Part shown: positions 16,156 through 46,302 of the stretch, piece by piece | How the letters are laid out: the number at the start of each line of letters is the position of its first letter | How positions within the stretch are numbered: position 1 is the stretch's first letter | DNA from: an uncultured Verrucomicrobiae bacterium | Lineage (GTDB): Bacteria; Verrucomicrobiota; Verrucomicrobiia; Chthoniobacterales; Terrimicrobiaceae | NCBI GenBank assembly: GCA_963706955.1 | Contig: CAVPOC010000008.1 | Span: forward strand, 1-64,000 | Direction of reading: 5' to 3' | DNA length: 64,000 nucleotides | Notes under the pieces: model-generated | The model's database searches: none | Seen by the model: the letters and a program-made list of their open reading frames with translations, nothing else | Told to the model about the DNA's origin: nothing | Position numbers and translations under genes: made by a program

Positions 16156-16167
16156 TTATTTTCCGTA
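16156..16167 (+). repeat. left att core TTATTTTCCGTA
   Basis: Identical to 46291-46302; 13 bp downstream of the glmS stop. Confidence 0.85.
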
Positions 16168-16239
16168 ATTGTTAGCGGTCCGACGCGGCGTAAGCGTAAC
16201 CCGTTGCAGTGCAACGGTGCACGAGAAAATGTTTGCCCA

Positions 16240-16259
16240 TGTGCTACGTTTTGTGCTAC
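16240..16259 (+). promoter_or_regulatory. putative integrase arm-type sites TGTGCTAC-N4-TGTGCTAC
   Basis: Matches TGTGCTAC-N4-TGTACTAC at 46151-46170 with the same spacing and orientation. Confidence 0.7.
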
Positions 16260-16268
16260 TTTTACGCT

Positions 16269-17407
16269 ATGTTACGCTCCGCGCATCCGGAAGACAAATT
16301 TGTGGCCGTTTACGATTCCCGCCGGCAGCGGGTGCGGGGCTTGTGGCGCCGCGGGAAACGCTACTATGCGCAGATGCGGGTGGAGTCGGCGGCGGCGTCA
16401 GCAAGCCGAAGCGCATCCCGCTGGCCGCGGATACGCTTGACCAAGCCCGGGCTGAGCTGGAGGCGAAGCGCACCGAAAACCGGCGGGGGCAACTGCACGT
16501 CCCGGGCCGTCGGCCGGCCTTCGCGGATGTGGTTAGGGAATACCTGGCAAGCGCCGAATTTAGCGGCAAGGCGCTAGCCAGTCGAAACAACGAACGACGC
16601 GCCTTGGCGCGGTGGGTTGCCTACCTAGGCGACGTGCGGGTTGACTGGATCAAAGCGGCCCGCCTCAGCGCCTACCGCGATAGCCGCAACGCGCGCGGCG
16701 TAAAACCGCAAACCGTCAACCTTGACCTGATCTATTTCGGAAATGCGATGCGGTTCGCGGTGGACCGCGGCTGGCTGGCGGATGTCCCCCGGCTGCGGCG
16801 CCTGAAACCCGCGCCCACGGCGAAGCGCCGGCTTTTGCCCGCGGCGGAGATTGAACGGCTGCTGGCGCATTGCCGGCCGGACGTCATCAAGAACGCCGAT
16901 TTGTTGCGGTATTACGTGCACTTCCTCGCCTTGACGGGCGCGCGCAAGGCGGAGGCGCTTAAGGTCCGCTGGTCGGATGTTGATTTCGGCAACCGGCAGG
17001 TGACGATCGGCGCGGCCGGCGACAGCAAAGGCGGGCGGTATCGCGCGGTGGACTTTTCGCCCGAACTTGAAGCGCTGCTCGTTGAAATGCGCGAGAACCG
17101 CCAGCCGGATTCGAGTTATCTATTCCCCGGTCCGGCCCGTGCCGGGCGGGATATTCCGGCCGCGGCGCTGGAAGGCCCCTTCGATATTGTGCGGCGCGCG
17201 GCGGGGCTGCCCCGGGTGGGCTTTCACGACTTCCGGCACTTTTACGCCAGCCAAGCCGTGATGTCCGGCATCGACTATATGACCGTGGCGAGCTGGCTCG
17301 GGCATCGGGACGGCGGGGTGTTGGTCGGCAAGGTTTACGGGCACCTCAGCGATACCCACAAGAAGCGCATGGCTGCAAACCTTGCCATCCTCAAAAGAAA
17401 ATCGTAA
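16269..17407 (+). CDS. tyrosine recombinase/integrase (frameshift near 16385)
   Basis: Catalytic set TGAR, DSK, FHDFRH, LGH, VYGH. The N-terminal arm-like part (MLRSAHPEDKF..RVRGLWRRGKRYYAQMRV) is in a different frame. Confidence 0.93.
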
Positions 17408-17500
17408 CGGTTCGTAAAAAAACTTGACCTGCCCCGTGGCGTAGCGGGAAAAGTAAGCAACATATTACAGCGCAATCGCTTATGCTTACCCACGGGACTC

Positions 17501-17626
17501 GGGGAGCAGCGGGGAGCAGCGAGGAGCAGCGAGGAGCAGCGAGGAGCAGCGAGGAGCAGCGAGGAGCAGCGAGGAGCACGGGAGCAGCGAAGCAGCGAGG
17601 AGCAGCGAGGAGCAGCGGGGAGCAGC
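17501..17626 (+). repeat. 10-bp tandem repeat G(A/G)GGAGCAGC, ~13 copies, some degenerate
   Basis: Directly visible array between the integrase and the xis-like gene. Confidence 0.95.
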
Positions 17627-17692
17627 GGCGAATAATCACCGTGGCCGGCCACGTCTCCGTAAGCCCTTAATAATAGGGCACATGTGCGATAA

Positions 17693-18090: not shown

Positions 18091-18273
18091 ATGAACTACC
18101 ACAACGAGACATTGGGCGCCCGCCTCACGCGCCTACTGAAAGCGAGCTTGCGGGACCCTACCTTAACCCAATCGATACTAGAGCGCCTCACGGAGCAGCA
18201 GCGAGAGCAGCCCCAGCCACGCAACTGCGACCCCGAGTTGAGGCAAGCGAGCCTGTTTGAAGCTCATGAATGA
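18091..18273 (+). CDS. small hypothetical protein of the island core
   Basis: ATG ORF whose stop overlaps the start of the next gene. Confidence 0.5.
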   Translation: MNYHNETLGARLTRLLKASLRDPTLTQSILERLTEQQREQPQPRNCDPELRQASLFEAHE

Positions 18274-19159
18274 GGAACCGCCTTATTCGGCTAGCCGGAT
18301 AAAAAGGCGGCGCCGAACCAGTGCGGAGATGGCCGAGTTGTTCAAAGCCGTCGTCGCGGTCCTCAACGGCTACGGGAACGATCGCATTTCGCTCCGGCAT
18401 CTATGCTATCGGCTCTCTTCGACTGGCGTGATTTCGAAGACGGAAACCGCTTTTGACACGCTGGCTGGTCACCTTGCCAAGTGGCGCAAGCAAGGTCTCA
18501 TCCCTTTCGGCCGCTTTGTAGATGCGACCCGCTGGTATCACGGCAGCACGACTTTCGACAACGCGGCTGAGGCCCTGGAAGATTCGATCGCCGCCTACCG
18601 AAAGAACCTTTGGCGGACGCAACCCTTCCATGTCGAGGTATGGGTTGAAAAGGAGGCCGTCGCGAGCATCGTCGTACCGGTCGCCGACCACTGGGGCATC
18701 AAAACCTTTGTTTGCCGCGGGTTCACATCGCTGACATCGACGTGGGAGGCGGCCGAGATATTCAAGGAAGCCATTTGGCACGGCAAAAAGCCGCTCATCC
18801 TTTACCTTGGGGATCTCGATCTGAAGGGCAAGCAGTGCGGCGATACAATCCGGAATCATTTCGCCCTACACGACCTCGACGGCGAGGTTGAATTGCGCCT
18901 TGTGGCTATCCTGCCCGAGCATATCGAGCGCTTTAATCTTCCGACACGCCCGCCCAAGTTTAGGGGTGACCCGGCGGAGTGTGTGGAGATTGATACGCTG
19001 TCATCGGCGCAGATTCGCGAGCTTTTGGAAGCTGAGATCACGGCCTTGATTGATCCGGAAGAGTGGATCCGCCTGCAAGGGATCGAAGCGGCCGAACAAC
19101 AGACCTTAAAGAACATCTTCCTCGTACACCGAGATGAATTATTGGAAGGCGCCGCATGA
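18266..19159 (+). CDS. Spo11/TopoVI-A-like protein (winged helix plus TOPRIM; Mini-A-like)
   Basis: SLRHLCYRL (Tyr at a Spo11-like position), EVWVEKEA, CRGFTS, LYLGDLDLKG (DxD), EIDTL. Confidence 0.65.
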   Translation: MNEEPPYSASRIKRRRRTSAEMAELFKAVVAVLNGYGNDRISLRHLCYRLSSTGVISKTETAFDTLAGHLAKWRKQGLIPFGRFVDATRWYHGSTTFDNAAEALEDSIAAYRKNLWRTQPFHVEVWVEKEAVASIVVPVADHWGIKTFVCRGFTSLTSTWEAAEIFKEAIWHGKKPLILYLGDLDLKGKQCGDTIRNHFALHDLDGEVELRLVAILPEHIERFNLPTRPPKFRGDPAECVEIDTLSSAQIRELLEAEITALIDPEEWIRLQGIEAAEQQTLKNIFLVHRDELLEGAA

Positions 19160-19525: not shown

Positions 19526-21199
19526 ATGCATAACCTAAATAACCCGCCGTTAATTGTAAAGCAGCTGGTTGATCGGATCGCGCTCCGCGATCCTCCGGTC
19601 GGCGCCCGCAAGAATCAGTCTGATGACTGGCCTGATCCGAAGCCGCTACGAAAGGAGATCATCCCTGTCATCAAAATGGAGCCGACGATGCTACCCGAAT
19701 CGCTGCGCCCATGGAATGTGGACATCGCGTATCGCATGCAATGTCCGCTCGACTTTGTCGGGGTCGCCTCAATCTGTATGTTCTCGCTCGTAATCGGAGC
19801 TGGCTGCGCGATCCGACCAAAACAGAAAGACGATTGGGCGGTAATCCCGAACTTGTGGGGAAGTTTGATTGGGCGACCTGGCGACATGAAGACGCCCGCA
19901 ATGGAAGCTGTATTCAAACTGCTGCACCGGCTGGAAGCCGAGGCGGGCGAAGTCTTTAAAGCTGAAATGAAACGCTACGAGGCAGCGAAAGCCGGACATG
20001 AGGCGAAGACCGCTGCGATCAAGTCGAAGATGCAGGCGGCGCACAAGAAAGGTGAGGCGGGCGAAGCGGTCGAACTCGAACAAGTGCTCGCTGATCTTGA
20101 AGCACCTGAGGCACCTATGCGTAAGCGCTGGATCACAAATGATGCGACGATTGCGAAGCTCGGCGAGCTGATCCGCGACAACCCACGTGGAATTGGTCAA
20201 CTCTTCGATGAATTGATCTCCTTTTTTGCGCGGCTCGATCGCGATGATCACGTCGAGGATCGCGGATTCCATTTGCAATCGTGGAATGGATACGGAACCC
20301 ACAAGTGTGATCGCATTGGCCGCGGCACAACAGAATCACCGCAGCTTTGCGAGACGATCTTTGGCTGTATTACTCCGTCGCCTCTGATCGCGTATCTCTC
20401 GCGCGTGAGCACAGAGAAGCAGAACGATGGCCTGATGCAACGTTTCCAGTTGTCGGTTTGCCCCGATGAGCCGGACTCCAAAGGCGATGTCATCATCGTC
20501 GATGAATATCCTGATCGCGAGGCGGCGACCCTTGTTTTCGAGATCATCAAGAAGCTCGCGAAAACAGACTTCATTGAGCTTGGAGCCGAGATGAGCGAGT
20601 TCTACAACAAGCCGTTCTTTCACTTCGACGAACAAGCGTTCGCATTCTTCGAAACGTGGCTCAAAAAGCTGATCAGAAAGGTGCGCCGCACGGACGAGAC
20701 ACCAGTGATGTCCCAGCACCTGAATAAGTTCAAGAGTTTGATGCCGTCGCTCGCGTTGATCTTCTACCTTGTCGATGTCGCGAAAGCTCTTCTCGATGGC
20801 AAAGAGATCGACGCCCTAGGCGACTGCCGAATCCCGCTGGGATACGCTGAACTCGCGGCGCGCTGGTGCGACTATCTCGAAAGTCACGCGCGCCGGATTT
20901 ACCAACTCGGATTCTCGGCAAGCGCGGCCGCCGCTGAACGGTTGCTAAACAAGCTATCCGGGGATGAGCTTCCGAACGAGTTCTCCGCGCGCGATGTTTA
21001 CACGCGAAACTGGGCGCTGCTCGATTCGAGCGCTCTCGCAGAGGCAGCGATCGACGAATTGCTCGATGCGGGATGGGTGCGAGCATCGCCGCAGGGCTCG
21101 AAGCCGCAATTTTCTTCAATCGGGCGGCCGCTTGGCAAAAAGTTCACTAAGCACCCAAAACTTAGAGAGTTATGGCAAAATTATCATGGAGATTTGTGA
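19526..21199 (+). CDS. DUF3987/YfjI-family P-loop NTPase (putative replication helicase)
   Basis: MQCPLDFV, PNLWGSLIGRPGDMKT (Walker A), NDATIAKL, FDE (Walker B), DRIGRG, DGLMQRF; winged-helix-like C-terminus. Confidence 0.85.
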   Translation: MHNLNNPPLIVKQLVDRIALRDPPVGARKNQSDDWPDPKPLRKEIIPVIKMEPTMLPESLRPWNVDIAYRMQCPLDFVGVASICMFSLVIGAGCAIRPKQKDDWAVIPNLWGSLIGRPGDMKTPAMEAVFKLLHRLEAEAGEVFKAEMKRYEAAKAGHEAKTAAIKSKMQAAHKKGEAGEAVELEQVLADLEAPEAPMRKRWITNDATIAKLGELIRDNPRGIGQLFDELISFFARLDRDDHVEDRGFHLQSWNGYGTHKCDRIGRGTTESPQLCETIFGCITPSPLIAYLSRVSTEKQNDGLMQRFQLSVCPDEPDSKGDVIIVDEYPDREAATLVFEIIKKLAKTDFIELGAEMSEFYNKPFFHFDEQAFAFFETWLKKLIRKVRRTDETPVMSQHLNKFKSLMPSLALIFYLVDVAKALLDGKEIDALGDCRIPLGYAELAARWCDYLESHARRIYQLGFSASAAAAERLLNKLSGDELPNEFSARDVYTRNWALLDSSALAEAAIDELLDAGWVRASPQGSKPQFSSIGRPLGKKFTKHPKLRELWQNYHGDL

Positions 21200-21383
21200 C
21201 TTTTGTTGCGTGACCTATAGAGCGTTCAGACCCGCAAAGTGAAAAAGTCACAAAAGTCACAAAACAGCAGCTTTCTCGCGCGCGCGTATACGCACAGTAA
21301 CCTTCTTCTAAGACTTTTGTGACTTTTGTGATTTTTCACTTTTGGCTGGGAAAACGTATTAGGCGACGTCACAAAACACAAAA
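21193..21383. repeat. inverted 9-bp iteron arrays (AAAAGTCAC), putative replication origin
   Basis: 21236-21264 and 21312-21342 are near-perfect inverted repeats around a CGCGCGCGCGTATACG tract; extra copies at 21193 and 21368. Confidence 0.75.
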
Positions 21384-21722: not shown

Positions 21723-22244
21723 TTAGGAACCTTCTCGCCGCAAGCGGCGCATCGTCTCAGCTTTCTTCTGGCGACGAATATTCGCCTTCGCTTCCTCCGC
21801 CGCAATTTGCTGGGCGCTGGCCGGTCGAAGAGGCTTCCCGCCCTCACCCCTTTCGGGTTGAAAGACCTTTTCAGGCAGTTCGGATAACTCCGTCAAAAAT
21901 TCATGAGCTGCCTCGGTGAGGAGTTGTCGAGCGGCGTGCTCGTGGGGCAGGCCCACCATTCGAGACGCGTATCGGGGGGCAAAGTTCAGAATCGTTCTCC
22001 GTAGCACCGTGAGAATATCAGCGAGTTGTCTCTGAATTCGCCCCCGATCGAGCAGTTCTCCCCGACGACGCTGGGCCTCGGTCTCCGCCATGAAGGCTTT
22101 TGCCTCCATTTGGCGATTTCGATGGGTCAAATATTCGCGAGAGAGCCTTTGCATCTCCGCCTTGTTGGTGGGCTGGCCATTGCCCCCGATTTTGGGAAGT
22201 CTCGGCTTGCTCCCGGCCACTCCTTGCGTCGGATGTTGGGACAT
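21723..22244 (-). CDS. Nu1/DUF1441-like terminase small subunit homolog
   Basis: AETEAQRRRGELLDR..LADILTVLRRTILNFAPRYASRMVG..LLTEAAHEFLTELSE resembles the C-terminal helices of lambda Nu1-type TerS. Confidence 0.55.
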   Translation of the reverse strand: MSQHPTQGVAGSKPRLPKIGGNGQPTNKAEMQRLSREYLTHRNRQMEAKAFMAETEAQRRRGELLDRGRIQRQLADILTVLRRTILNFAPRYASRMVGLPHEHAARQLLTEAAHEFLTELSELPEKVFQPERGEGGKPLRPASAQQIAAEEAKANIRRQKKAETMRRLRREGS

Positions 22245-22472
22245 TTAATCGAAAAGTGAATTACCTGTGGTTAATGCAGCCCCTTTTTGTTGGACGCGCC
22301 GCATCGTGCAGAGGTAAAATGGCTGGAAGAACCTTATGGGGAGGGGCGCTTTGATACATTCGAGGTATGGCATAGGAAGGAAGAAGAGCCGGTCCCCAGC
22401 TAACACGAGACAAGACGGGCGCCGGTCAACCCAAACTTGGTAACCGATGCGCACTATTCTTCTCCAAAGCGC

Positions 22473-22625
22473 GGTCGAGGCACCCAGCGAGTTCAGGGCC
22501 CAATAGATAGCCGTGTTGTGGGCGCAGACGCAACTTCCGCAAATTATCATTGCCAACCAAAGTCTTCTGAAGACGGGGGTTCGCAATGCCAGCCACGTAG
22601 AGGTTTTTTTAGCGGTCTTTTCCAA
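22473..22625 (-). pseudogene. MFS transporter N-terminal remnant
   Basis: STWLALRTPVFRRLWLA.. first TM only. Confidence 0.6.
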
Positions 22626-22882
22626 GGGGAGTGGTCGAGTTAAAGCGGGAGGGTCTTCTTTATCTCCGAATTCTCTACTGAGTACGCTTCGGGTAACAAT
22701 CGCATATAGAAAGCAGTTTCCTTGGATCCCGATGCAGCTTCTGCCGCGCTGTGCGGCATCGTCAGAACCGGTACACTGCCTTGCTCAAGCTGGTCTTCAG
22801 CGAGGACGAGATCCAGAGAGTCATTGCGCGAGGCGGCAGCCCCGCCACTGATTGCTGTAGCTTCGGATTTCGATTTTCAAGA

Positions 22883-23200
22883 TCATGGCGCCTGCACGCA
22901 TCGGAGTCCGAGGGGTTCGTGCCCGTATTGACCTCCCCCTTGCCGCGCGTGCCCACTGTGTAGCGGGTGCAATATTGAGTGTTGCAGAGGAAGGAACCGC
23001 CTTTGTGGACGCGCTTTTTCTTCGACGGCTCGACGGGATCGAAGGGGTTTTCCGGGCCTGCGGGTTTCGCGTGACGCTCCCTTCATTCAAGTTTTTGAAA
23101 ATAATCGGGACGATACCACTCGCTGCACCATTGCCAGACGTTGCCCGCCACGTCGTAGAGACCGTAGTCATTTGGGGAAACGATTTCACGGGCGCGATAC
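22883..23200 (-). pseudogene. formylglycine-generating enzyme (FGE-sulfatase) C-terminal remnant
   Basis: Across frames: DYGLYDVAGNVWQWCSEWY, RVHKGGSFLCNTQYCTRY, LGLRCV. Confidence 0.75.
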
Positions 23201-23474
23201 CGGCACTATCCCTTGGTGACGAGCGGGGTGAAGGAGTTCATCCGCTTCTGGCAGACCACTCACGTGCTCTGCTCGCGCGTTACCTCTATTTATGCGCTTT
23301 CGCGGGTTTTACAGAGAGTGCGCGATACGGGTTCGAATCCCGTTAGGGTCGCCACTCGTTTAGAGCGACGATTCGCCTTCAATATCAGATAAATAGAGCG
23401 TCTACGGACGATTCGCCAGTCCTGATTGAAAGTGCAGTTTGGTGCTGTTCTGGCGGAAAAATTGTTACCTTTTG

Positions 23475-25304
23475 CTACCCTCTGTGGAGATAGGAAAGGA
23501 GGATCCTTTGGATTTCGGTTTCTGTTTTTGGATGGGTTTGCACATCATGGCCCGTTGGGACAATCAGCTCGGATTCGGCACCGTCTAAGTGTGAGCTCGA
23601 GTAGCCAACGATGCCGTCGGAGCTTTGCGGCGAGTCACCACGACCGCGGTCTCCGATCACGGAGTGGTAAGCTAACCCGGGGGCGAATGGAGCATGTTCG
23701 AATGCCTTGTAGATTGGCGCCTCTGGAGAGAGGGAATCGATTCCCGTGAACGAGCGTCGACTCACCTTCAATCCGTCGAGTACGTCAACAAGTGACGAGA
23801 GCACACGGGTCTGAAATCGCACCAAGCTTGTCGGCAACCCGACAAATTTGCGTCCGAGCTGGGCGAATGAGGCGTCGGCCATTCGGGTGCCGCGATGTGG
23901 GGTCGCCAGGAAGATGACTTCTCTCACTCCTGGTACCGGTTTCCAGAAAATTAATCTCCGGAGCTCTTCGCGATCTTCCGGCTCCAGTTGGACCTGATCG
24001 AAAGGTGTTTTGGAAACGAGCGTCCACAGCTGCTCACCAACGTCGGTTGCAAGAATCCGAGCGATGGTTCCCCCCATGCTGTACCCGACGATCACGATAT
24101 TTTTCGACGCGCGCGAGTTACCGCCCGGGTCACCCGAGCCGCGGATAAGCGCGATTTTGTCGCGAATGAGTGCGGCCGATTGTGGAACGGGCACTCCTGT
24201 TGAATAGAACGCGTACCAAAACTGAAAGTTTGCACGGATCAATGGGTTCTTCATCGCGTCGGTGGCAACGTTTCGCCAGACGAGCGGCGAAGATGTGAGC
24301 CCGTGCAGAAGCAAGACGGGAATGCGGTCGGGATCGAATGGCTCGATGAGATAGATTCCGTTGTAATCCGCGCCCGCCTCTACGTTCAGGATAGCACGAA
24401 CGCCAAGCATCAGGTCGTTGATTCCCTCGAACGACATTGCCAGCGGCGCTGTGAAGTCGCCAGCGAGCAGAAGGGACTTTCCTTGGATGCGGGCGGTCGC
24501 CGTGCGGTCCAGGTCGTAAACCTTCAGGCGCACCCGCGTCTGGCCATTGCTCTCGCGATCAAAGTCAGCGAACGAACCAAGGGGCGCAAAAACGCCTCGC
24601 TTCGGAGGTTGGAAGCCCAGTTCGGCCCGCCTAGCTTCGGTACGTTCGCGGATTCCAACTAGCGGAGCGCCGATGCCGTCGGTACGCGCCCGCTTTTTGA
24701 AACCCGTGACCTTAACGTAGTCCGCAGGGACCAATCGATCGAAGTATCGAGAGTGGTAGCGATCCTCCGCGGCGTAACGCGGGGCCACGCTCCTGGTGCC
24801 CAATGGCGTTTCCACCGTGAGCGTTCCCGAGCCTGCAGCGAGAGCCCTGGAATGCTCAAAAACGAACGCGGCGAGCGCGGTGTTATAGATGGCGACAGAC
24901 CTGCAGGTGGCCGGAGTGGCGTCCCAGCGCGAAGATGGCACACCGGATTGAAGTAGACTCCGATAGGCCAACTCGCATGCAGCAAGGGCGTATCCTCCGC
25001 GCAGGCCGCGCTTCAAGACCGCGGAGGACTCGGCAAGCCGCAATACGATTTCCGCCGCTTGTGCCAAGCGACGGGAATCCGTCCCTGCCCATTGCTTCAG
25101 CTCGCCGGGCGATGTTTCCGGTTTTCCTTTGTCTAACCTCAGCCTGTCCCTGCGAGCGTCGCGTACGATTTCGGCGCTGGAGAGAACTCCCTTCGGGACC
25201 GGGCGGTAAGGCTCCGATTGAATGCGGGTGGTAATCGTCGAGCCGCAGCCGGTCAGAAAAATTGCGAGCCATGCTACGCCGAGAACACATCTGCGCTCAA
25301 CCAT
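23475..25304 (-). CDS. alpha/beta-hydrolase lipoprotein (lipase/esterase-like)
   Basis: Lipobox FLTGC; LLHGLTSS, GYSMGG nucleophile elbow, ATPHRG, SDGIV..SSHL. Confidence 0.85.
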   Translation of the reverse strand: MVERRCVLGVAWLAIFLTGCGSTITTRIQSEPYRPVPKGVLSSAEIVRDARRDRLRLDKGKPETSPGELKQWAGTDSRRLAQAAEIVLRLAESSAVLKRGLRGGYALAACELAYRSLLQSGVPSSRWDATPATCRSVAIYNTALAAFVFEHSRALAAGSGTLTVETPLGTRSVAPRYAAEDRYHSRYFDRLVPADYVKVTGFKKRARTDGIGAPLVGIRERTEARRAELGFQPPKRGVFAPLGSFADFDRESNGQTRVRLKVYDLDRTATARIQGKSLLLAGDFTAPLAMSFEGINDLMLGVRAILNVEAGADYNGIYLIEPFDPDRIPVLLLHGLTSSPLVWRNVATDAMKNPLIRANFQFWYAFYSTGVPVPQSAALIRDKIALIRGSGDPGGNSRASKNIVIVGYSMGGTIARILATDVGEQLWTLVSKTPFDQVQLEPEDREELRRLIFWKPVPGVREVIFLATPHRGTRMADASFAQLGRKFVGLPTSLVRFQTRVLSSLVDVLDGLKVSRRSFTGIDSLSPEAPIYKAFEHAPFAPGLAYHSVIGDRGRGDSPQSSDGIVGYSSSHLDGAESELIVPTGHDVQTHPKTETEIQRILLSYLHRG

Positions 25305-25467
25305 CGGACTTCTGGCCCGTAAACATTAGTTCCTTGCGAAGGCAATCGTGGAGTTGGGAGTGTCAAACTGTTTTTTTGAGGTCCTGAATGGTTTGCATGG
25401 TTCAATGTGCTCTTGATTGCAAGGGCAATCTGCCGTTGGCGTCGACGTCTCTAGACCTTGTTTGACG

Positions 25468-25615
25468 AAAACCCTGTGTCTGAAGCTATCGGAAAGCTTC
25501 ACAAAAGTCATTTGGACGATCGGTTTCGCCCTTTCCGCTGTGATCAGCTTCTCGCTGTTTGAACCTCGTCATCGAGGGCATTGCGCTCGGCATGGCTTAT
25601 ATCATCTGGACGGGG
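25468..25615 (+). pseudogene. SMR/DMT small multidrug exporter remnant
   Basis: LKLSESFTK...IALGMAYIIWTG across a frameshift. Confidence 0.65.
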
Positions 25616-35285: not shown

Positions 35286-35289
35286 CGGC

Positions 35290-36942
35290 ATGACCGGGTG
35301 GGACTGGAGAGACTGGGCGGGCTGGGCCGGTTTCAACGACGGCAGCGTCAACGGAGGGTCCGGAAACTGGTCGGCGGGGATCTGGCTCACCGCACGGCAG
35401 ATGGCCCGGTTCGGCCATCTCTTTCTCAACCGGGGCAATTGGGCCGGACAGCAATTGATCAGCGCCTCCTGGGTGGATCAGGCCACGTCCCCACAAGTGG
35501 CTCAGAACCTGCCTCGGGGCGCCAGCAGCACGGATCTCAACGGACCCGGAAACTACGGCTTCAACTGGTGGACGAGCGGCGTCCGGTCCGACGGGAGCCG
35601 CATGTGGCCGGCCGCGCCGAACGGCACGTACGCCGCGGGCGGGCTGAACGTCAATGTCTGCTTCGTGATTCCCGAATGGAACATGGTCATCGTCCGCCAG
35701 GGAATGTCGTGGAGAGGCGATCAAATTGATCCGGTCCTGAGCACCTTCCTCGGAAAGGTCGGTGCCGCCCTGGGAACGGCGCCTCCACCGACGGCGCCTC
35801 CACCGACGGACGCCGTCACGAGCTTCACGCTGGTGAATGCGGATACGGATCAGGATCTCGGGGTCCTGGCCGACGGGGCCGTGATCGACCTGACGACGCT
35901 GCCGACCCGGAACCTCAATGTCCGAGCTAATACGTCCCCGTCGCCCGTCGGGAGCGTCCGATTTGTGCTGGACGGAAACGCCGCGATCGAGAACGCCGCG
36001 CCGTACACCCTGGCCGGCGATGCGGGAGGCAACTACAATCCCTGGACCCCCACCGTGACGTCGCACATCCTCACAACAACCCCCTATTCCGGGGCCGGCG
36101 CTACAGGAGCGGCAGGAAACTCCTTGACGGTCCACTTCACCGTCACCGAGAGCGCCTCCAGCTACCGCATCGGCCTGAGCCATGACGGCAACCAGCACGA
36201 TTCGGACGACATCCTCTCCATTGCGATGGGACTGGCCGTCATCGTCGAGTCTGGGCTGGCGCCGAGGCTCGTCCATTGCGACTACAACAACCATCTGGGC
36301 GACAACAATCCGTCCATGGCCGCGGAGATGGCGGCGAGCGCCAACGAGGCTGCCCAGCGATGGGGCATCCCGTCGTCCGTGCTGTTCGACTGCCAGCAGA
36401 ACCTGACCGGAGCGGTCAACAGCATCCGGGACGCCATCAACGCCTCTTCATCGGCCAACCGGTTCTATCTCGTTTGCGCGGGTCCGATGGAGGTGGCCTG
36501 GCGCGGCATCAACGCGTCCGACCCCGCCAAGAGGCAATACTGCACGGCGATCTCGCACAGCCTGTGGAACGACGAGCATGCCGACACTCCGCAGATGACC
36601 CACACGTGGTCGTCGATCCAGTCGAGCGGCGTCCAGACGATCCACATCCAGGATCAGAATCCCGGCCTTCAGACGGGCCTCGCGAACTGGACGTGGCTGC
36701 GCGACTCGGGCGTTCGGTGGGCCTGGCTCTACGGCCGGAACGACGCCGCCTACGCGAACCTGGGGCTCTTCGACTGCTCCGACGCCGGGATGGTCTACTA
36801 CGTCCTTACGGGTCCCTCCGACATGGCCGCCGATCCGGCGAAGATCCGATACCTCTTCACGACCGGCCCGGGGGGGCTTCGAGGAGGGCGCCGGAGGCCC
36901 GGTGGTGACGTCCCTGACGCTCGTGCAAGGCGCCGCCTTTGA
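35290..36942 (+). pseudogene. internal fragment of a GC-rich multidomain protein (serine hydrolase C-half, beta-rich domain, further domain)
   Basis: LTARQMARFGHLFLNRGNWAGQQLISASWV and YGFNWW (class C beta-lactamase-like, SxxK half missing); VTSFTLVNADTD domain; a second copy begins (PVVTSLTLV) at ~36900 and is cut off. Confidence 0.7.
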
Positions 36943-37360
36943 CTATCACTCATCCGTCTTCAAGCAAGAATGCGGCGTTCTGGGCCTTGTAGCTGAACAT
37001 GGCTTGGTACCCGCATGACTCCTCGTCGCGAAGTTTTCGTTCACGAAGCAGGCCATTTAGTAATCGGTCTCCGGCTCGGCATTCGCGAGCAGGGAATCGT
37101 GTTCGCTGGGGTTCGGGCAAGCGAGGCAGCAAATGGCGGAGTGAAGCCGCCGTTCTTTCAAGGAAATCTCTCCCAGTTCATCCTCACGTAGTAGAGTTCC
37201 TTGCCTGGTCGTTTGTAAGGTTTGCACCGAGTGAGACGACTGTAGAGTGGATGAATTGTCTCCAGACATCTCGGGCGCCAATTCTGCTGCAGACTTCTCT
37301 GAGAGTTCCTAGCCGAGACGAGCTTGCGAGCCGATTTTTCAGAAGGTCGAGGTGACAGAA

Positions 37361-37660
37361 ATGCTGCGACGTGCTCTTGAATCGCTTTGGGCCTTACAGC
37401 GTCTGACGTGTCGAGAAGCCACTCGACTCGCAGCCCATGCAATGGACCGGCCGTTGACGCTTGGCGAGCGCCTCCAGCTGTCCTCGCACAACCTGCTTTG
37501 CAGCTATTGCAGGAACTACGCTCGCCAGCTTCGTTTCTTGCGCAAGTGGGTGCGACATGACAATAGTCGCAATGCCGGCTCCCCGGAACCCCGAATCCCA
37601 AAGGCCTCGGCTTCCCGCATCAAAATGAGACTCGAGCGCGAAATCTCACGTGCCCAATGA
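37361..37660 (+). CDS. zf-HC2 anti-sigma-like protein (no adjacent sigma factor recognised)
   Basis: LTCREATRL..LTLGERLQLSSHNLLCSYCRNY (HxxxCxxC). Confidence 0.8.
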   Translation: MLRRALESLWALQRLTCREATRLAAHAMDRPLTLGERLQLSSHNLLCSYCRNYARQLRFLRKWVRHDNSRNAGSPEPRIPKASASRIKMRLEREISRAQ

Positions 37661-37731
37661 GCCTCTGCCTAAGGCGACAGTCATCATACCTATCTCGTCA
37701 GACCCCCAACGGGCTCGGCGAGAACAAAGGG

Positions 37732-37799
37732 GATCCCGCGCTCACCGTCATCTCCAATGCCCTGCGTTTGGCGATCATTTGCTAGGCCGAGTGAACTGA
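37732..37799 (+). pseudogene. GMC oxidoreductase extreme C-terminal remnant
   Basis: PALTVISNALR./GDHLLGRVN*. Confidence 0.45.
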
Positions 37800-38124
37800 A
37801 AAGTGATTCCGGCGACGCTACTGTCCGGCTGTTCAGTGCCTGGGAAGCCAAATCTCGTAGTTTCCCGGATCGAGATCGTTCGAGTTAGAAACGCTGATCA
37901 AGTTCGGTTCTTCGCCTGTGAATCTCTTGACTGTCTCGGCCAGTCCGCTCAGAAAAGGCTCTTCATTGGCGTTTTTTGAGAAACGAATCTCCAGATTCTC
38001 GGGAGTAGTCAATTTAGCCTCTTTGGCGTTACTTAAACGTCAACACCCTGGACGGTGATTCCTTTCTCCTCAAGCGCCTGAGCCAGCTTCTCGCCCAGCA
38101 TTAGCTGAGAGTCATCGGCGGCGA

Positions 38125-39042
38125 CTATGAAAATGGGAGGTATGCGCTTTTGCCCTTCGTCAGCTCTTCCGGCAACGGCTTCCCCGAATTAAGTGATTGT
38201 ATGGCTGATTCGGCTATCACCCGGAGCGCAGTCCTCGGACTCGAAATCACGAACATATTCAGTTGATCACTGACAAACTTTGAAAGCTCGGCAGAACGGT
38301 TGGCGAGGTCTACCACACCTGTGGCAATCTCCTGAAGGCGACGGTAGTCTTGCACAAGGCTGAGCAGGGCCAGCTTTATCTGAAGCCCAACGCGGATTTG
38401 CTTTTGATCGGGATTCCCCCCTGCCTTGTTATTGATAAAGCTCCAAGTTCGGTCCATAGCCGATAGCTCGGTAATCAGCGCTTTCCTATAAGATTCATCG
38501 GCTTCGACTAGCGTATGAATGTCGAGCATTAGTTGCCTCCTTAAGACTTCGACTTCTGTCACGGTTGGAATCAGGCTCGAAATGCCCCGCACCATCAGAG
38601 GCTTGAGCTCTTGCTGGTAAGTCTGTTGCGCGAGTAGCTGTGGCATCATTCGAAGGGCATCGAGCCTGACGGTCTCATTGGTTGCATTGGCAGCCACCGT
38701 CGACAAGACACTAACGGTCATCTCCGGGGAGATGCGTCCTGATGCGAGCAAATGGTCCACATAGAAAATACAATACTGCTGCTTAATCGGATCTTTGTCG
38801 AATGCGTCGGCCAGGAGCTTCCGCGTCTGCTCCATCTGCCGCTCCCCTTCCATACTAAAAAAGGTCAGAATAGTGATCAACGTGCCCGCGACCGACAAAA
38901 CGACCGGAACCGAGATCTTCTGAATCAGATCAAGGAGCGAGAACTTCGGCTTCGGCTCCTTGATGACGTCTCCACAGTGAGGACAAGTGTTGGCGTTTTC
39001 GGATATTTCGCCGCCACATTCTTTGCATTGCACCATCGCCAT
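38125..39042 (-). CDS. zinc-ribbon membrane protein with helical C-terminal region
   Basis: CKECGGEISENANTCPHCG followed by one TM helix. Confidence 0.75.
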   Translation of the reverse strand: MAMVQCKECGGEISENANTCPHCGDVIKEPKPKFSLLDLIQKISVPVVLSVAGTLITILTFFSMEGERQMEQTRKLLADAFDKDPIKQQYCIFYVDHLLASGRISPEMTVSVLSTVAANATNETVRLDALRMMPQLLAQQTYQQELKPLMVRGISSLIPTVTEVEVLRRQLMLDIHTLVEADESYRKALITELSAMDRTWSFINNKAGGNPDQKQIRVGLQIKLALLSLVQDYRRLQEIATGVVDLANRSAELSKFVSDQLNMFVISSPRTALRVIAESAIQSLNSGKPLPEELTKGKSAYLPFS

Positions 39043-39474
39043 AACAAACTTGTTGAAGAGTATCAATGTGAGTTGCGTTTGTCTCTCGACAACCTCGACA
39101 TGACTGGGATTGGAATTGCGAGAGTGTCGGCAACGCTTCTGTATGCAACCAATGCATCAGTGGCACACCCCGGATGTCATTGCCAATGCGATCCAGGAAG
39201 TGAAGACCCCTTGCGCTGAGCCACTTATATCGAAGTGTTCGAAGCGACCGGTTCGCCTACAGCGCAGCGGCGCTCTATAGGCGCCGAAATGCTCCGCCTG
39301 CCTGTTTCGCCGTGCCAATCGCCAATCGACCGCGCCGCCGAGTCATCGTCACGGCACGCGAAAACATGCTTCAGCTTCACCGCGTAGATGGCTCGCTCGC
39401 CGCGAAGACCCTCTGCTCTCCAAGTGTAAGAAAACGGGGAGATTCCCGACTCATCAAACAACCAACGACGCATT

Positions 39475-40011
39475 ATGAAATCCCAACAACTCACTGATCT
39501 CGCCCGCGCGGGCTACGAGCTACTCATCGCGGGCGCTTCAAGTTTGAAATCGCCCTTTCTGCTTATTGTCCGGCTCTATTGGGGCTGGCAGATGTTTGTG
39601 TCCGGCCGCGCGCACTTGTCCGACGTCCCGGCAATGGTGGAGCGCTTTCAGGAATGGGGCGTGCCGTTCCCGACTTTCAACGTTTATGTCTCCGGCCTCA
39701 CGGAGTGTGCGTGCGGTCTCCTGTTGCTCGTGGGTTTCGCCTCGCGGCTAACCACCATTCCTCTCATCGTCAACTTTTGCGTCGCATATCTTACGGCAAG
39801 CCGGGAGGTCCTACTAAACGTGTTTAGCGACCCTGACGCATTCGTTTCCGATGCCGCATTTCTCTTCCTGCTCGCCTCTGTGATCGTCTTCATCTTCGGG
39901 CCGGGTGCGTTCTCGGTGGACGCCGTTCTCAAAAAACTGTTCGTTGCACCGCGCAAGAAGGAGGGCGAAGCCATTGCCGCCGCTTCACCTCTTCCCCAGA
40001 CCATCTGGTAA
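39475..40011 (+). CDS. DoxX family membrane protein
   Basis: LLIVRLYWGW, ECACGLLLLVGFASR, GPGAFSVD. Confidence 0.88.
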   Translation: MKSQQLTDLARAGYELLIAGASSLKSPFLLIVRLYWGWQMFVSGRAHLSDVPAMVERFQEWGVPFPTFNVYVSGLTECACGLLLLVGFASRLTTIPLIVNFCVAYLTASREVLLNVFSDPDAFVSDAAFLFLLASVIVFIFGPGAFSVDAVLKKLFVAPRKKEGEAIAAASPLPQTIW

Positions 40012-40434
40012 GCTACGGAGTCTGCACTGAACAAACTTTGAACGAAGGACGATCTGCAAATCTTACAGACCGGCCGAAGAACGAAGGGCGCACCGTGCTT
40101 CACGCACTGGGCGCTGGAGTGGCTTGCGGCCTTTGGGGATGCTCGCGCGGGGCAGGCCATCGCTCAGGACTGCGCCGCCGGCGCCAGCGGGTTGCGCACA
40201 CCGGTGATCCGCTCCCGCGTCACCGCCACGTAGTTTGCCGTCGTGGCAAACTGGGCGTGGCCGAGGCAGCTTGAGCGTCGGCAGATCGTCGGCCATCCTC
40301 CAGCAGATGCGTGGCAAAACTATGGCGCAGACAATGGATGCCGCCGCGGTTGGGCAGGCAAAGAACCCCAATTTCCTTTCTGTTTGCCGAACGCAAAGGT
40401 CAATGACGGGAGCCAGCCGTCGATGACGTTCGGT

Positions 40435-41823
40435 TTATCCCCTCGGTTTAATGTTCTGGTTCAGATGGAACAGATTGTCCGGATCGTACTGCTTTTTGAT
40501 CTGTGCCAAGCGATCATAGTTGGCGCCGTAAGCGGCGGCCACCCGATCGCTTTCTTCTTCCGTCATAAAGTTCACGTAGGCACCATCGGAGGCGTATGGG
40601 GCAGAGGCTTGGAAAAACGCGCGTGCCCAAGCGATACACCGCTCATCGTCTCTCATCTCATCCCATCGCCCGTGAACGTTGAGCACAAACTTTGCGTCCC
40701 GATGACGATATGCCATGGCATCTGCCGAAACGCGATTGGCTGCGCCTGCGATAAGCCCGATGAAAATCTCGCACTGCGGCGAAGGCAGCTTGCCGGCGAA
40801 CTCGATCATAGAGTTCAGCGCGCCATCACCGAGTTCTGTAAAATTATGGGATTTCCAATAGTTTCTCGCGCCAGGTGTAAGCAGAGGATCAAAGGCTTTC
40901 TCCCACTGCGTGTAGGGCTGAGCACCGACGTGTTCGCCGTGGGGGTGCCAAAACGGAGCAGCGGCTCAATCATTTTCCTGCCTTGAACAACATCCCCGGT
41001 GTAGAAGATGGGAAGCACGACCACCTCTTTGCCATGCACCTCTCCGGGAAGAAACGGCAGGGGCGGAGCCTTGCGCAATACCACCCACACATTGAGTTCC
41101 TCAGGTGCCGACTCCACAAATTCGCGATACTGCGTCAGCACCTGCTTTGCCTGGTCGAACGGAAAAACAATCAATCCAGCCAGAATTTCGGGACCGACCG
41201 CATGAAGCTTGAATTCGAATTGAGTAACAACCGCAAAATTACCGCCGCCTCCTCGAATTGCCCAAAATAGGTCGGCGTTTTCCTGTTCGCTGGCTCGGAA
41301 TTTCTTGCCGTCCGCAGTGACCACGTCTGCAGACACCAAATTGTCGACGGTCATGCCGTATTTGCGCGTCAACCAACCGAATCCGCCGCCCAGCGTCAGC
41401 CCGGCGATCCCGGTGGTGGAAATTGATTCCTACCGGCGTAGCCAGCCCATGGGCCTGTGTCGCTTCATCGAGATCGGCCAGTGTCGCACCAGGTTCGACA
41501 TAGGCGCGCTTCTTCTCTGCATCAACGCGTACGTTCCTCATCGTTGAAAAGTCGATCATTACGCCGTTGTCGCACAAAGCGTTCCCCGCAATGTTATGTC
41601 CCGCGCCTCGAATCGATATCTCCAGTCCGTTCTCGCGTGCGAACCAGATGGCATGCGGAACGTCATTGGCCTGTGCACATCGCACGATGAGAGCAGGCCG
41701 CCGATCGATCATCGCATTCCATATTTCGCGAACCTCGTCATAGTTCCCATCACCCGGCAGAACGATCTGACCTTTCACCTTGCTCGCAAGATTCTCGGTC
41801 GCCTTTTTAGGTATGTTTACCAT
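40435..41823 (-). pseudogene. FAD-binding oxidoreductase with BBE domain (two frameshifts)
   Basis: IRGAGHNIAG, DLFWAIRGGGGNF and YGANYDRLAQIKKQYDPDNLFHLNQNI in three frames. Confidence 0.88.
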
Positions 41824-42383
41824 GGTTTTTTCGTTTCGATTTTGAGCAGTAACGCTGAGCCGAGCGCCCCGAGGTTAGGGGAAGATGCGTCGGCTCGGCC
41901 GGTGTCCCGCGTTGAGTGTTTATTTTTCCGATTTGGTTCGTTGTTTTATACCAACAAGTTAGTACGCCGCTAGGTGAAAAAAGACTAGGCTCGGCTGTCA
42001 GTGTAGCCAACGAGAGTCGAAATCCGCGGATGGCCTTGGTAATGCGGATCGGATGGGCCCTGGGGAGTATGATGGAACCCTCGAGAATGCCTAGAAGCGT
42101 ATGGCCCACAAATGGCCTTCCGCCACACCGGACGGGCTCGACGTCCACGATCTACCGCGACATCCAAGTGCGGGATCATGCCTGAGTCCTTAGAGTACGA
42201 TTTGGAACAGATTCTGCGATGACCCGAAATGGCTCTCATGCTCGTCAGCGCCGATGTTATACGCGTTGATGGGAACTGGTTGGCGTTCGCCGTGTAGGGC
42301 ACGATTCCTTTCCTCAGCCCCCAAAAAGCAGAGCTGGCTCCAGCGCATCCGCGGCATCATTGAACATTCCCAGCGACAGGTGA

Positions 42384-43829
42384 CTATCCGCGCACGACGC
42401 GATACACGGATGCGCTGCCTTCGACGCCGCGAAGAGGGGCAGCAAATTCGACGACCTTATGGCCGGCAAGGAGAGGGCTAACTTCCGGCGCAGTATAGAG
42501 CGCTTCCGAGATACAGATCTCGCCGGCATCTGCCAGGGCCTGCACGCGCGCGGCGACATTCACGGTCTGACCGAAATAGTCCAGGTTGTCGTTCAGCGTC
42601 ACGGCGATTGACGGGCCGCAATGCGCGCCGATCTTGAGGATGATGCCCGGTTCGCCATGCTCGCGATTGTAGCGCTCGATTTCCCCGAGAATGTGCACCG
42701 CTGCCGCGACCGCATCTGTCGGGCGGGAGAAGACAGCCATCACCGCGTCACCGATCGTCTTTACGACAGCGCCGGAATGTTCCTGGACGGCGGCGTCGAG
42801 CAACGCGAAATGCTCGCGGACCAGCGCATAGGCATTCAGATCGCCAAGGCGTTCATACATGGCGGTCGAGCCCTTGAGGTCCGTGAACAGAAAGGTCACT
42901 TGCCGGATACCGAGCCCTTCCCTCTCGTCGACGCGCTCCGATCGGAACAGCCGCCGGAAGGTTTGTCTCGCAAGCAACGTTCCGCCCGACATGTATGGCT
43001 CGAAGTCGAGCACTGGTTTGCTCGTCTGGGCCACGATTTCGGGAGGCCAGTTGATCAGGAGCAGCGAGCCGCGCGCGGGTCCGGAGTTCTCGACCTCGAT
43101 GACGATAGGACCGGGCGGCACGGTGGGCAGCGAAGGTGAAAAGCGCTGCCCATCGTATCTGATTCGCAGCAGCGTTGGCGTCGTTGTTGGCTCGCCAGCT
43201 ACCGGCACCATCAATGCGGCCTGCGTCCTGACGTTCACGCCCGAGAGAGCGCCGGGGCCAAGGTCAGCCCGCAGCGTGGTGGTGGACTCCGGCGGCAAGA
43301 ACGCCAGGCCGCGAACCAATCCGTGGAGAAAGTCGAGAAACCGGACCTGTTGCCCGGGGAGTCGCCCGTCGTTCGAAAATCGAAGCTTCCAATGGAAGTC
43401 CTCGACCGAGAGCGAATCGGGATCATGGAACGGCAGCCGACGGAGTTGCGGCGACACCGTAAACGTGACCTCGATGAAATCGTCCAGGTCGGTGTCGCCC
43501 GATACGTCGCACAAGCCGCAGACATAGTGGGTCTTGAGCGTGCGCAGCGCTCCGAAGCTGTCGAGCACCATGCCGGACTGCGGGCAAATGACGTCCCAGC
43601 TCATCTCGAACAATCCGCTTCGAGTCGCATGAAGGAACAGGTCGATGCTTTCGGCTTCGGCTACTGAGCGGTCGCGAGCGAACGCTAGCGGATTGACACG
43701 GTACAGGGACAGATCGTCGCCGCTCCTGATGAGCGCTTCGAATTTCGAGATCACGCGCGGGCTCCAGGACCGCGCCTGCTCGATCTCCGTCATCTTGCTT
43801 TCGAGAAGCCCTTCCTGAATGTTGTTCAT
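42384..43829 (-). CDS. adenylate/guanylate cyclase domain protein with DUF5939-like N-terminus
   Basis: FLFTDLKGSTAMY, VKTIGDAVMA, LDYFGQTVNVAARVQ. Confidence 0.88.
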   Translation of the reverse strand: MNNIQEGLLESKMTEIEQARSWSPRVISKFEALIRSGDDLSLYRVNPLAFARDRSVAEAESIDLFLHATRSGLFEMSWDVICPQSGMVLDSFGALRTLKTHYVCGLCDVSGDTDLDDFIEVTFTVSPQLRRLPFHDPDSLSVEDFHWKLRFSNDGRLPGQQVRFLDFLHGLVRGLAFLPPESTTTLRADLGPGALSGVNVRTQAALMVPVAGEPTTTPTLLRIRYDGQRFSPSLPTVPPGPIVIEVENSGPARGSLLLINWPPEIVAQTSKPVLDFEPYMSGGTLLARQTFRRLFRSERVDEREGLGIRQVTFLFTDLKGSTAMYERLGDLNAYALVREHFALLDAAVQEHSGAVVKTIGDAVMAVFSRPTDAVAAAVHILGEIERYNREHGEPGIILKIGAHCGPSIAVTLNDNLDYFGQTVNVAARVQALADAGEICISEALYTAPEVSPLLAGHKVVEFAAPLRGVEGSASVYRVVRG

Positions 43830-44281
43830 CTGCGCGCCAGGGCAGTTTAGCGTACGATACTCATTGCCTGAATCCCGGGCCACAAATTTGTTTACAGGCT
43901 CGCCGTTCACCGCACGCGACACACGACCGCGGCGACCCGCTTTAAAAGCGAACTGTCACTCGCGGGCGCTCCCCCCTTCTTTTTCGCAACTGCCCTACAC
44001 CGATCGGCTCTTGGGTGTCGCTCTCGTCCGAAGATTCTTCAAGCAGCCTCGGCTCACGCCTTTTGCTCGGCGATGGGGGCGCCAGCGTTCACAGCAAGGC
44101 AGGCGAGCCAGTCTCCGCCTTCAGCGCGGATGTGGACTATGCCGAATTGCTGCCACGCTTGTTCGAGTTGTAGCCTGGGGCTCTTCCGCGCCGGTATCGA
44201 ATAGCCGCCACCAATCTCAACGGTGCTGGAACAACCGGGCAGGATGACCAAGGCAAGGGTGCCCCTCTACTAAAGCGCTGA

Positions 44282-45774
44282 ATGAAGCTGCCACGCTTGA
44301 TGCCTGTGGCGATTGCCGCCAGTCTTGGTTTCGGCCTTCATCCCATCTGCGCGGCTTCCCCGATGGACTCGGTATCGGTGCCCGACTCCAAAGACAAGCA
44401 GACCCCCGTTGCCGCTGCTTCCCGTCTGACCAGCGAAATGGAGAAGATGGCGGAGCTCCATGACTACAATTTCGTTAATCCGGAGAAGCAATACACCCTC
44501 CCGGAGCTCGTTGATCTGGCACAGCGGCACAATTTAACCACACGAACCGCTTGGGGAGAGCCATCCAGGCAGCCGCGTAAACCGGCATGACCAAGGCTGA
44601 GTTCTACCCCTTACTGACGGTGGTGAGCAGTTATGGTGGGGGATACTGGCATCAGGCCGTGACCGGTGCCCTCAAGCAAACTGGATTAGTGGTCCCCATT
44701 GAACTCAATGACAAGGCCGGTGGACCTTACACCGTCTTCAATGCCGGGGTGAGTCTGCGCTACACCCTCTTCGATTTCGGACAGCGGAGCGCCCTCACCA
44801 ACGCCGCCAAACGCAAACAACTCGCCGCCAATCTCACCTTCAACGCCACGCACCAGACAGTCACCTTCCAAGTCACCCAAGCCTATTACACTCTGGAGAC
44901 CACTCGTCGCCTGATCGAGGCCGCCGAGATCTCCGCCGCCTTGGCGTCGGACATCCTTTCCGCCACCCAGGACAAGTTTGAACACGGCTTGGTGACCGAA
45001 CCAACCCTGCTCCAGGCACGGCAGGCCAAGGCGCAGGGCGAATTCGACCTGGTCAACGCCCGTTCCAACTGGGAGGTAGCCCGCGTCAACCTGATCGAGG
45101 TGATCGGAGCCCAACCGCAATGCGCACTCAAGGTGGCCCCGGCGAATTTCGCCTCTCTCGGGAGTCAAATACAAGAGCCGCTTGACCTCTTCGTCCAGTC
45201 GGCTCTGAAGCAGAAGCCCGACTTACTCGCCAAAGTGGCCGAAGCCCAGGCGGCTCAGGCGAGCCTGCGTGCGGCAAGGGCCGCTCCTCTTCCCACGGTC
45301 TCACTCACCGCTATGCAAAACTACAGCCAGTTTGAGACGACAATCCAAGGCAGCGGTAACGTGCTGAGCAATGTTGGTCTTGGATTCCAGAACTACGGCG
45401 GTTTTGTGAAAGTCGAGTGGCCAATTTTTGACGGCGGCCTGGACAGCAACAAGATCAAGGCCGCCGAGTCGTCGTGGAGGGAGGCCAACGAGGCGGTGCT
45501 CCTCGCGTGGGTTAAGAGCATTGCAGATGTCTTGCGAGCCTATACCAACTTAAAAGCGGCCCTCGCCCGCCGGGAGTCGGCCGAGGCGCTCCAGACTGCG
45601 AGCAAGGCCGCTTATGATTCGCTGCGGGCGAGTTTTGATCTCGGCATCACACCGATTCAGGATGTTCTCGCAGCCCGCACCTCTTTGGCACAGGCCATGG
45701 CTCTGAGGGCTACCGCCGACGGGGCCGTTGCAGCGAGCCTCGCGACCCTCGCCTACGTCAGCGGGCGGCTTTGA
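44282..45774 (+). pseudogene. TolC-family outer membrane efflux protein (frameshift near 44555-44585)
   Basis: Signal peptide and YTLPELVDLAQRHN in one frame; KAEFYP, YTLFDFGQR and WPIFDGG in the next. Confidence 0.82.
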
Positions 45775-46150
45775 TTTTGGAAAAAACGAGCCATTTTATT
45801 GCTGCCGCCAGTATGAAGGATGGCAAAGGGTTTCGTCAGGGCGGGCGCGGCGGAAGGATGGCTGCTTGTGACGAGTTTACCGCAACCGGAGACTATGAAG
45901 TTTGCATGGACGGCTTAGCCACTGAATTGGCCGATTGGGCTGAGGAGCCGTCAAGCGGCCCCGGTCCGGCTCGCTGCCGTCGGGTAAAAGTGCATTTCAA
46001 ATACCCATGAGGCGTCTTTGGGGTAGTAGCCGGCGCCGGGTAATGCTCATACAGCCAGCGCGCGAATTCCTCTTTTCCCCAACCGGAAAAAATGTGATCC
46101 ACGCCCGATGTTTGCTGGTAACTCCGCGCCTGTCCCCCCTCAAACTGCCG

Positions 46151-46170
46151 TGTGCTACATTTTGTACTAC
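46151..46170 (+). promoter_or_regulatory. putative integrase arm-type sites TGTGCTAC-N4-TGTACTAC
   Basis: Counterpart of 16240-16259. Confidence 0.7.
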
Positions 46171-46290
46171 ACGCCGGGGAGCCTACGCCGGGCCGCGCCG
46201 ATGCTAGCGGTGCGCCCGCCCCGCTTGTGTTTATGCGGTTCGGAGGCCGTTTTGCGTTACGCGCCGTTACGCCGCGGGCCGGCAAAAAAC

Positions 46291-46302
46291 TTATTTTCCG
46301 TA
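46291..46302 (+). repeat. right att core TTATTTTCCGTA
   Basis: Identical to 16156-16167; encodes the last codons (YGK-stop) of the minus-strand lipoprotein gene. Confidence 0.85.

Follow-up and report, generated by a model that had tools for sequence, protein, structure and literature searches.

A tyrosine integrase element between glmS and a small probable lipoprotein gene

We analysed a 64,000-nucleotide stretch (the window) of contig CAVPOC010000008.1 from an uncultured Verrucomicrobiae bacterium of the family Terrimicrobiaceae (assembly GCA_963706955.1), in which a 30-kb island with a tyrosine integrase gene (int) lies between glmS and a small gene next to lgt. The features at the two ends of the island are listed here, with the junctions divided according to the 7-bp register proposed below.

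14274..16142, + strand: glmS (Pfam SIS and GATase), host flank and bystander
16153..16171, + strand: glmS-side junction, containing the 12-bp repeat 16156-16167; host half-site CAATTA (16153-16158), proposed 7-bp overlap TTTTCCG (16159-16165) and element half-site TAATTG (16166-16171)
16233..16262, + strand: putative int promoter (-35-like TTGCCC, 18 bp, -10-like TACTTT), overlapping the arm pair
16240..16259, + strand: int-side arm-type pair, two 8-mers with a 12-bp period
16269..17407, + strand: tyrosine integrase with an N-terminal sheet-plus-helix domain (PF00589, PF24624, phrog_1), frameshifted near 16385
46151..46170, + strand: far-end arm-type pair, 142 bp before the A of the core at 46293
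46288..46306, + strand: lipoprotein-side junction, containing the 12-bp repeat 46291-46302; element half-site AACTTA (46288-46293), overlap (46294-46300) and host half-site TAGTGG
46291..46548, - strand: small probable lipoprotein gene, the true target; an 85-codon open reading frame (ORF) present in 27 of the 41 genomes searched
46567..47523, + strand: lgt (PF01790), host flank

The two ends share the 12-bp core TTATTTTCCGTA (16156-16167 and 46291-46302), which has no other copy in the 4.16-Mb genome; the chance of a 12-mer common to random 100-bp pairs was 0.055% (20,000 draws). Read in the ORF 46548-46291, the core encodes the C-terminus Y-G-K-stop. As it makes up the last 12 nt of this ORF, the target gene is kept by the insertion, just as the initial annotation of this DNA had proposed, and every motif coordinate quoted there was correct when re-read in the sequence. 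The stop codon of glmS, at 16142, lies 13 bp before the core. The small gene is labelled a lipoprotein gene from a lipobox-like Cys seen by eye and from its position beside lgt, while Pfam and NCBIfam profile scans of it gave no match.

The empty site, with glmS directly adjoining the small gene, was seen in all 14 informative genomes of the genus and in soil run X5. The small gene is present in 14 of the 18 other genomes of the genus and adjoins glmS, 12-22 bp apart, in each of the 14; the remaining four are 60-94% complete, also have no glmS match and are uninformative. In G007 (GlmS identity 98%), the glmS stop is followed by 13 bp, the core and then the small gene, in exact agreement with the prediction. 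A contig of X5 carries host sequence up to 16167 and then the sequence from 46303 onward, the host contig of run X3 ends precisely at 16167, and a contig of run X1 starts at 16138, crosses the core and goes on into a variant element, which represents the filled junction (read-archive runs with a low word share were left out of this analysis). The left junction of the window reads CAATTA-N7-TAATTG, and the element side in X1 is TAAGTT, the exact inverse of AACTTA at the far end. The island is a real and precisely bounded insertion, and on the register proposed below the element would span 16159-46300.

A 10-mer and its inverted copy near the core had also been singled out in the initial annotation.

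16184..16193, + strand: 10-mer with an inverted copy at 46267-46276, of doubtful significance

Both copies are present, 16 and 14 bp off the core, but they are not conserved: the inverted pair was found in just 2 of 157 homologous loci (≤1 mismatch), and in the near-identical X1 element the 10-mer is altered at 16185 and 16189. The pair was rejected as a conserved site. The 10-mer has 18 copies in the genome, and an inverted 10-mer occurs in 0.3% of random flank pairs and in 2.3% of composition-matched flanks. At the glmS end there is a terminator-like hairpin (16132-16162) whose tail is formed by the T-run in the core, and the hairpin therefore survives integration; its occurrence is not beyond chance (1 found, 0.6 expected).

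The integrase resembles lambda Int

The start codon of int is the ATG at 16269; this start and the frameshift near 16385 had both been missed before. The reading frame is open in protein P0124 and in the contigs of X1 and X3. Residues R236, K264, H330, R333, H356 and Y367 are invariant in all 80 aligned proteins, and the PF00589 match is over the cut-off. In the AlphaFold model of the intact allele P0124 (predicted local distance difference test score, pLDDT, 89), strands at 22-62 and a helix at 67-82 were predicted at high pLDDT, and the best Foldseek match of the model was, over its full length, lambda Int on its core site (PDB 1z1b). An arm-binding (AB), core-binding (CB) and catalytic (CAT) layout is described for arm-binding tyrosine integrases in PMC8138268.

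The likeness to lambda Int extends to the three-domain model, the catalytic motifs, the proposed 7-bp overlap between inverted half-sites and the arm-type direct repeats on both sides, whereas the identity is 16-19% and the arm motif of the window is a different one. The integrase probably works like a lambda-type, arm-binding system. For a recombination directionality factor, no credible Pfam match was obtained in nine small or unassigned island ORFs, and the region 17770-18040 has indels.

The integrase family targets tRNA anticodon loops

Homologues were collected from genome, order, metagenome, genus and family searches, and those with a name come almost all from Verrucomicrobiota. After dropping matches below 250 aa and clustering at 90%, 112 clusters were obtained, 94 of which have a divergent tRNA gene just upstream of int (78 Leu, 9 Met, 3 Phe, 2 Arg, 1 Lys and 1 Gln). 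One other cluster has a tRNA on the same strand, six, among them the window, have no tRNA, and 11 are cut off by a contig edge; the divergent tRNA is thus found in 94 of the 101 clusters with readable upstream DNA. The glmS gene, the small gene and lgt were seen only at the window's own locus and in none of the 190 other Int loci, many of which are short (87 have more than 1,500 bp upstream). The earlier suggestion of a family that targets the glmS 3′ neighbourhood did not survive these counts, and the parallel with Tn7 looks coincidental.

For two-ended mapping we used 141 rows with a divergent tRNA, duplicates included, with flanks of mostly ≤10 kb. A second copy was seen in 22 rows, representing 18 distinct elements. 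In 16 of these elements, the duplicated block extends from tRNA position 39/40 in the 5′ direction, the other two having shorter 5′ pieces; the crossover therefore falls in the anticodon loop, and the element brings the tRNA 5′ half. The parent family targets tRNA anticodon loops and restores the 5′ half of the tRNA.

Several loci of the family showed features of their own. L136, L169, L175, L193 and L200 have a tRNA 5′ half without the 3′ half ahead of int, the first four with an arm-like pair farther upstream as well, and have the appearance of circles of the attP type or of tandem arrays within the parent family. In L065 and L112, the tRNA 3′ half and loop are followed by non-tRNA sequence, i.e. 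the tRNA is not restored by integration, which recalls the tRNA-dependent lysogeny described in PMC10865867. L030, L033 and L207 sit at non-tRNA sites; the tRNA 5′ half is kept by L033 and absent in L030 and L207. Arrays of 14 and 7 tRNA genes were detected downstream of the integrase in L033 (16408-20985) and L043 (10146-11198), respectively. L059, L060 and L061 have tRNA-Leu on the int strand, the common arrangement, which suggests a flip within the family. In the host genome, G000, a second tRNA-Leu(TAA) lies beside a weak PF00589 match (C8:1031795-1033102), with further integrase matches at 1057476 and 1099889. L025 and L037, from records titled Klebsiella and Bifidobacterium, have integrases that fall within Verrucomicrobiota clades and are probably mis-binned contigs.

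Arm-type sites are shared across the family

The genome holds exactly two copies of the pair TGTGCTAC-N4-TGT(G/A)CTAC, one at 16240 and one at 46151. With up to two mismatches, the int-side pair was identified at 104 of 157 homologous loci, compared with 5 of 5000 background windows. In 15 of 16 mapped elements, the distance from the far pair to the first shared base downstream is 136-155 bp, and in 10 of them it is 141-144 bp; the 142 bp between the far pair of the window and the A at 46293 fall within the family range. The pair and its spacing are family-wide, and it appears that the pairs act as arm sites, as the initial annotation had supposed, to which Int would bind. Thus, of what was expected of homologous integrases, the arm pairs are common to the family, but the target differs, being the tRNA anticodon loop.

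From the family arm spacing, we place the 7-bp overlap of the window element at 16159-16165 on the glmS side and at 46294-46300 on the lipoprotein side; this corresponds to the anticodon-loop register. On this register, the lipoprotein stop codon would be supplied by the element half-site AACTTA. L035 has the same AAAAAACTTA ahead of its tRNA loop as is found at the far end of the window. An exchange segment of 7 bp is described as typical in PMC10111431.

The pair was readable in 81 of 111 clusters. TTG stands at -7 in 95/84/88%, and 74 of the 81 have a start codon at +29. Based on these positions, the arm pair would cover a sigma-70-like int promoter, and Int probably represses its own gene through it. 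A generic promoter scan gave no site at either end of the element, the promoter at 16233-16262 being under its threshold. An att region that overlaps the int promoter was shown for KplE1 IntS and for the divergent IntF (PMC2951348).

A lineage that probably left the tRNA

No tRNA gene was found in the 64-kb window. The 33 bp after the overlap resemble the 5′ half of no host tRNA, since 263 of 300 shuffles scored as well, and a remnant tRNA half in the window was rejected on the same score. The closest of 39 tRNAs to the overlap TTTTCCG are the host tRNA-Phe, with one mismatch in the loop, and tRNA-Leu(TAA), with two. In two quick trees, the window Int is nested among tRNA-Leu integrases with 98-99 in the Shimodaira-Hasegawa-like approximate likelihood ratio test (SH-aLRT), and five closer proteins, 86, 71, 68, 65 and 64% identical, form a clade with it (SH-aLRT 99).

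The six proteins of this subclade (window/P0124 and P0005-P0009) all have Gln at a position that is Arg in all 94 tRNA-linked clusters, and that lies at the start of the modelled helix 157-176 in the core-binding domain. A second change affects the stretch that aligns with a helix of XerA ahead of the HxxR motif and was identified in the window, P0005, P0006, P0007 and P0097. The helix before HxxR is known from work on XerD and Cre to read core bases.

The over-long N-terminus of P0007 translates, in attP order, a far arm pair, a linker and then, 75 codons on, the near arm pair. The linker matches the far end of the window (score 62, reached by 0 of 300 shuffles), no tRNA-derived motif occurs in the extension, and the read-through is most likely an attP-type or tandem junction in a relative. 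N-terminal extensions with tRNA-derived motifs were seen in P0056, P0088 (by eye), P0098 and P0101. As for membership in the tRNA-5′-half family, the window element has its clade and its arm spacing but lacks a divergent tRNA whose 5′ half is duplicated. By phylogeny it belongs to the family, of which it is a variant in target.

We consider it likely that the island represents a retargeted lineage, a satellite-like element whose arm-binding integrase uses an anticodon-loop-like sequence by the lipoprotein stop codon, with glmS as a bystander. An arm-binding lambda-type tyrosine integrase would insert the satellite-like element 16159-46300. In its Verrucomicrobiota family, the crossover normally takes place in the tRNA anticodon loop and a replacement 5′ half is brought along, so that int comes to lie divergent to the tRNA; the window lineage would have retained the arm pairs at the family spacing while giving up the tRNA half and changing residues of the DNA-recognition helices. 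Its new recombination site would be the loop-like 7-mer TTTTCCG just inside the lipoprotein stop codon, which would be rebuilt by the AACTTA half-site of the element, and glmS, 13 bp away, would be uninvolved. The residue changes may be what brought about the new target.

A wider version, which we hold tentatively and rate somewhat below an even chance, is that the whole subclade left its dependence on tRNAs stepwise and reads TTA-N7-TA sites, with a host stop codon as half-site. The Arg-to-Gln change would then have come first, followed by the rewriting of the recognition helix in the catalytic domain and the loss of the tRNA 5′ half.

Weighing of the explanations

Several points weigh against the retargeted lineage. 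The int of the window has a frameshift near 16385 that cuts off the N-terminal domain; the host flanks align with G007 without gaps, and therefore both decay of int and a consensus error are possible. The trees are quick ones that carry SH-aLRT values but no bootstrap, with a long branch for the window. In P0008 and P0009 the Gln is found together with the unchanged second helix motif of the family, and the tRNA-less reading of P0006 and P0007 comes only from translated upstream frames. No DNA context for P0005-P0009 was found in 301 genomes of the order, 19 of the genus, 102 of the family, 30 of the sister family and 401 of the class, nor in metagenome contigs (best 80 of 272, ≤52% identical) or viral contigs. 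No attP joint (46290-core-16168) was found in four contig-level runs of two studies, searched over the region 15300-19300 only, and the X1 element may go back to the same insertion, followed by divergence in place, rather than to an independent event. The crossover could formally fall anywhere within the 12 bp. Moreover, the exact 7-bp overlap is present only in G000, G007 and G016, while 12 other genomes of the genus differ; with 3 of 15 genomes carrying it, the target is a narrow one. Finally, L030, L033, L065, L112 and L207 are off tRNAs or leave the tRNA unrestored.

The last of these points, together with the single mismatch to the tRNA-Phe loop, would also fit a landing at a secondary site, whereby an integrase of relaxed specificity, or one with another primary site such as the tRNA-Phe loop, hit a look-alike once. 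X5, in which pieces of int were found while its host contig passes through the empty site, can be read in the same way. However, the 12 bp at either end are identical to those of the empty site, X1 has a variant element at this very junction, and the needed stop codon comes from the element half-site; moreover, the off-target L033 keeps the tRNA 5′ half that is absent from the window element. We regard such a landing as rather unlikely. Still less probable is a family of integrases that, in different hosts and in convergence with Tn7, is dedicated to the glmS 3′ neighbourhood. The site lies 13 bp behind glmS, the glmS-lipoprotein pair is conserved in the genus, and the small subclade could share the lipoprotein end; but for the family this explanation is refuted by the 0 of 190 other Int loci with glmS, the lipoprotein gene or lgt, and the overlap varies in 12 of 14 relatives. 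In addition, glmS adjoins the small gene in none of the six loci examined outside the genus, and the core is free of glmS sequence.

The patchwork cargo of host-like composition and the assembly frameshifts inside the element could suggest that the repeats are due to chance or to the assembly, and that the 30 kb are several unrelated insertions. Set against the precise empty site, the unique arm pairs at both ends and the family-typical spacing, this is very improbable. A Tn7-like, TnsD-guided insertion at attTn7 would agree with the location directly behind glmS, where Tn7 is known to insert (PMC3273789). It is contradicted by the tyrosine integrase at the element end and the shared 12-bp core, and no Tns families were detected among the scanned island ORFs of at least 80 aa (overlapping shadow ORFs were not all scanned); we rejected a Tn7 identity on this att anatomy and give it next to no credence.

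Content of the element

The remaining features of the island were as follows.

17481..17637, + strand: 10-bp tandem repeat array of about 14 copies between int and the next ORFs; the copy number differs in X1
18257..19159, + strand: topoisomerase-like protein (phrog_6247, E 7e-45)
19526..21199, + strand: DUF3987 helicase-like protein (PF13148; phrog_2373)
21243..21336, no strand: 22-bp inverted repeat of short direct repeats, 95% complementary, putatively origin-like
21723..22244, - strand: small-terminase-like (TerS-like) ORF (phrog_57, E 3e-12)
22400..45900, no strand: patchwork cargo with profile matches, pieces of which match scattered loci of the genus at 64-98%

The cargo includes a hydrolase, an RND adaptor, a split Ser/Thr kinase-TPR module, a sugar-binding protein, HPr, DoxX, FAD oxidase pieces, an adenylate cyclase and a TolC-like protein. 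The kinase-TPR module (26460-30291) consists of three ORFs and has about eight related copies elsewhere in the genome and many in the genus. In composition, the sole bin standing out was 15-20 kb. The array at 17481-17637 could be a regulator-binding array. With int, this array, the replication genes, the origin-like repeat and the TerS-like ORF, the element looks satellite-like from its predicted genes, and it would perhaps be packaged by a helper phage. AlpA had no match among the island ORFs, which do include the DUF3987, topoisomerase-like and TerS-like proteins beside the inverted repeat. The replication genes were not found next to the homologous integrases, and no close relative was found in viral contigs.

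Comparison with known systems

The parent family has exactly the rare 5′-fragment arrangement with int and tRNA opposite and divergent: tRNA 5′-fragment islands account for 159 of 3919 Islander islands (PMC4383910), and SIT+OD shapes for <8% of 1273 (PMC2951348). The window element differs from such islands in having neither a tRNA nor a tRNA half, and in targeting the end of a protein gene. The helper-embedded phage-inducible chromosomal islands (HE-PICIs) of PMC10111431 resemble it in a doubled motif of 12-bp period on both sides of attP, in clade-level moves to protein-coding sites and in a satellite-like content of int, helicase and TerS. Their pairs lie 81 and 132 bp from the centre (PMC10111431), and the pair centres of the window at about 88 and 137 bp. 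HE-PICIs have another motif, enterobacterial hosts and prophage late genes as targets, as described there, and compared with PICI-like satellites the window element is large, with 30 kb and cargo. With Tn7 it shares the insertion just downstream of glmS; Tn7 uses TnsABC+D (PMC3273789), whereas the window element relies on a tyrosine integrase, and its shared core lies in the gene adjacent to glmS. Our literature search returned no description of this Verrucomicrobiota integrase family or site, although TIGER/Islander tables may already list such islands.

Significance of the probable target switch

Target switching by integrases is reported to be frequent (PMC4383910). Cases that show the parent site together with the new one, along with an unchanged geometry of the arms and candidate residues for specificity, are rare, and here the switch becomes testable through a few swaps in a recombination assay. 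The analysis also brings to light a large Verrucomicrobiota family with the rare 5′-half tRNA arrangement, and such att pairs might be of use as integration tools in a phylum where few are available. The island of the window gives no evidence for convergence with Tn7 on glmS. If the stepwise departure from tRNAs is true, the subclade would be a natural residue-level series for the switch of a tyrosine integrase from tRNA to protein-gene targets.

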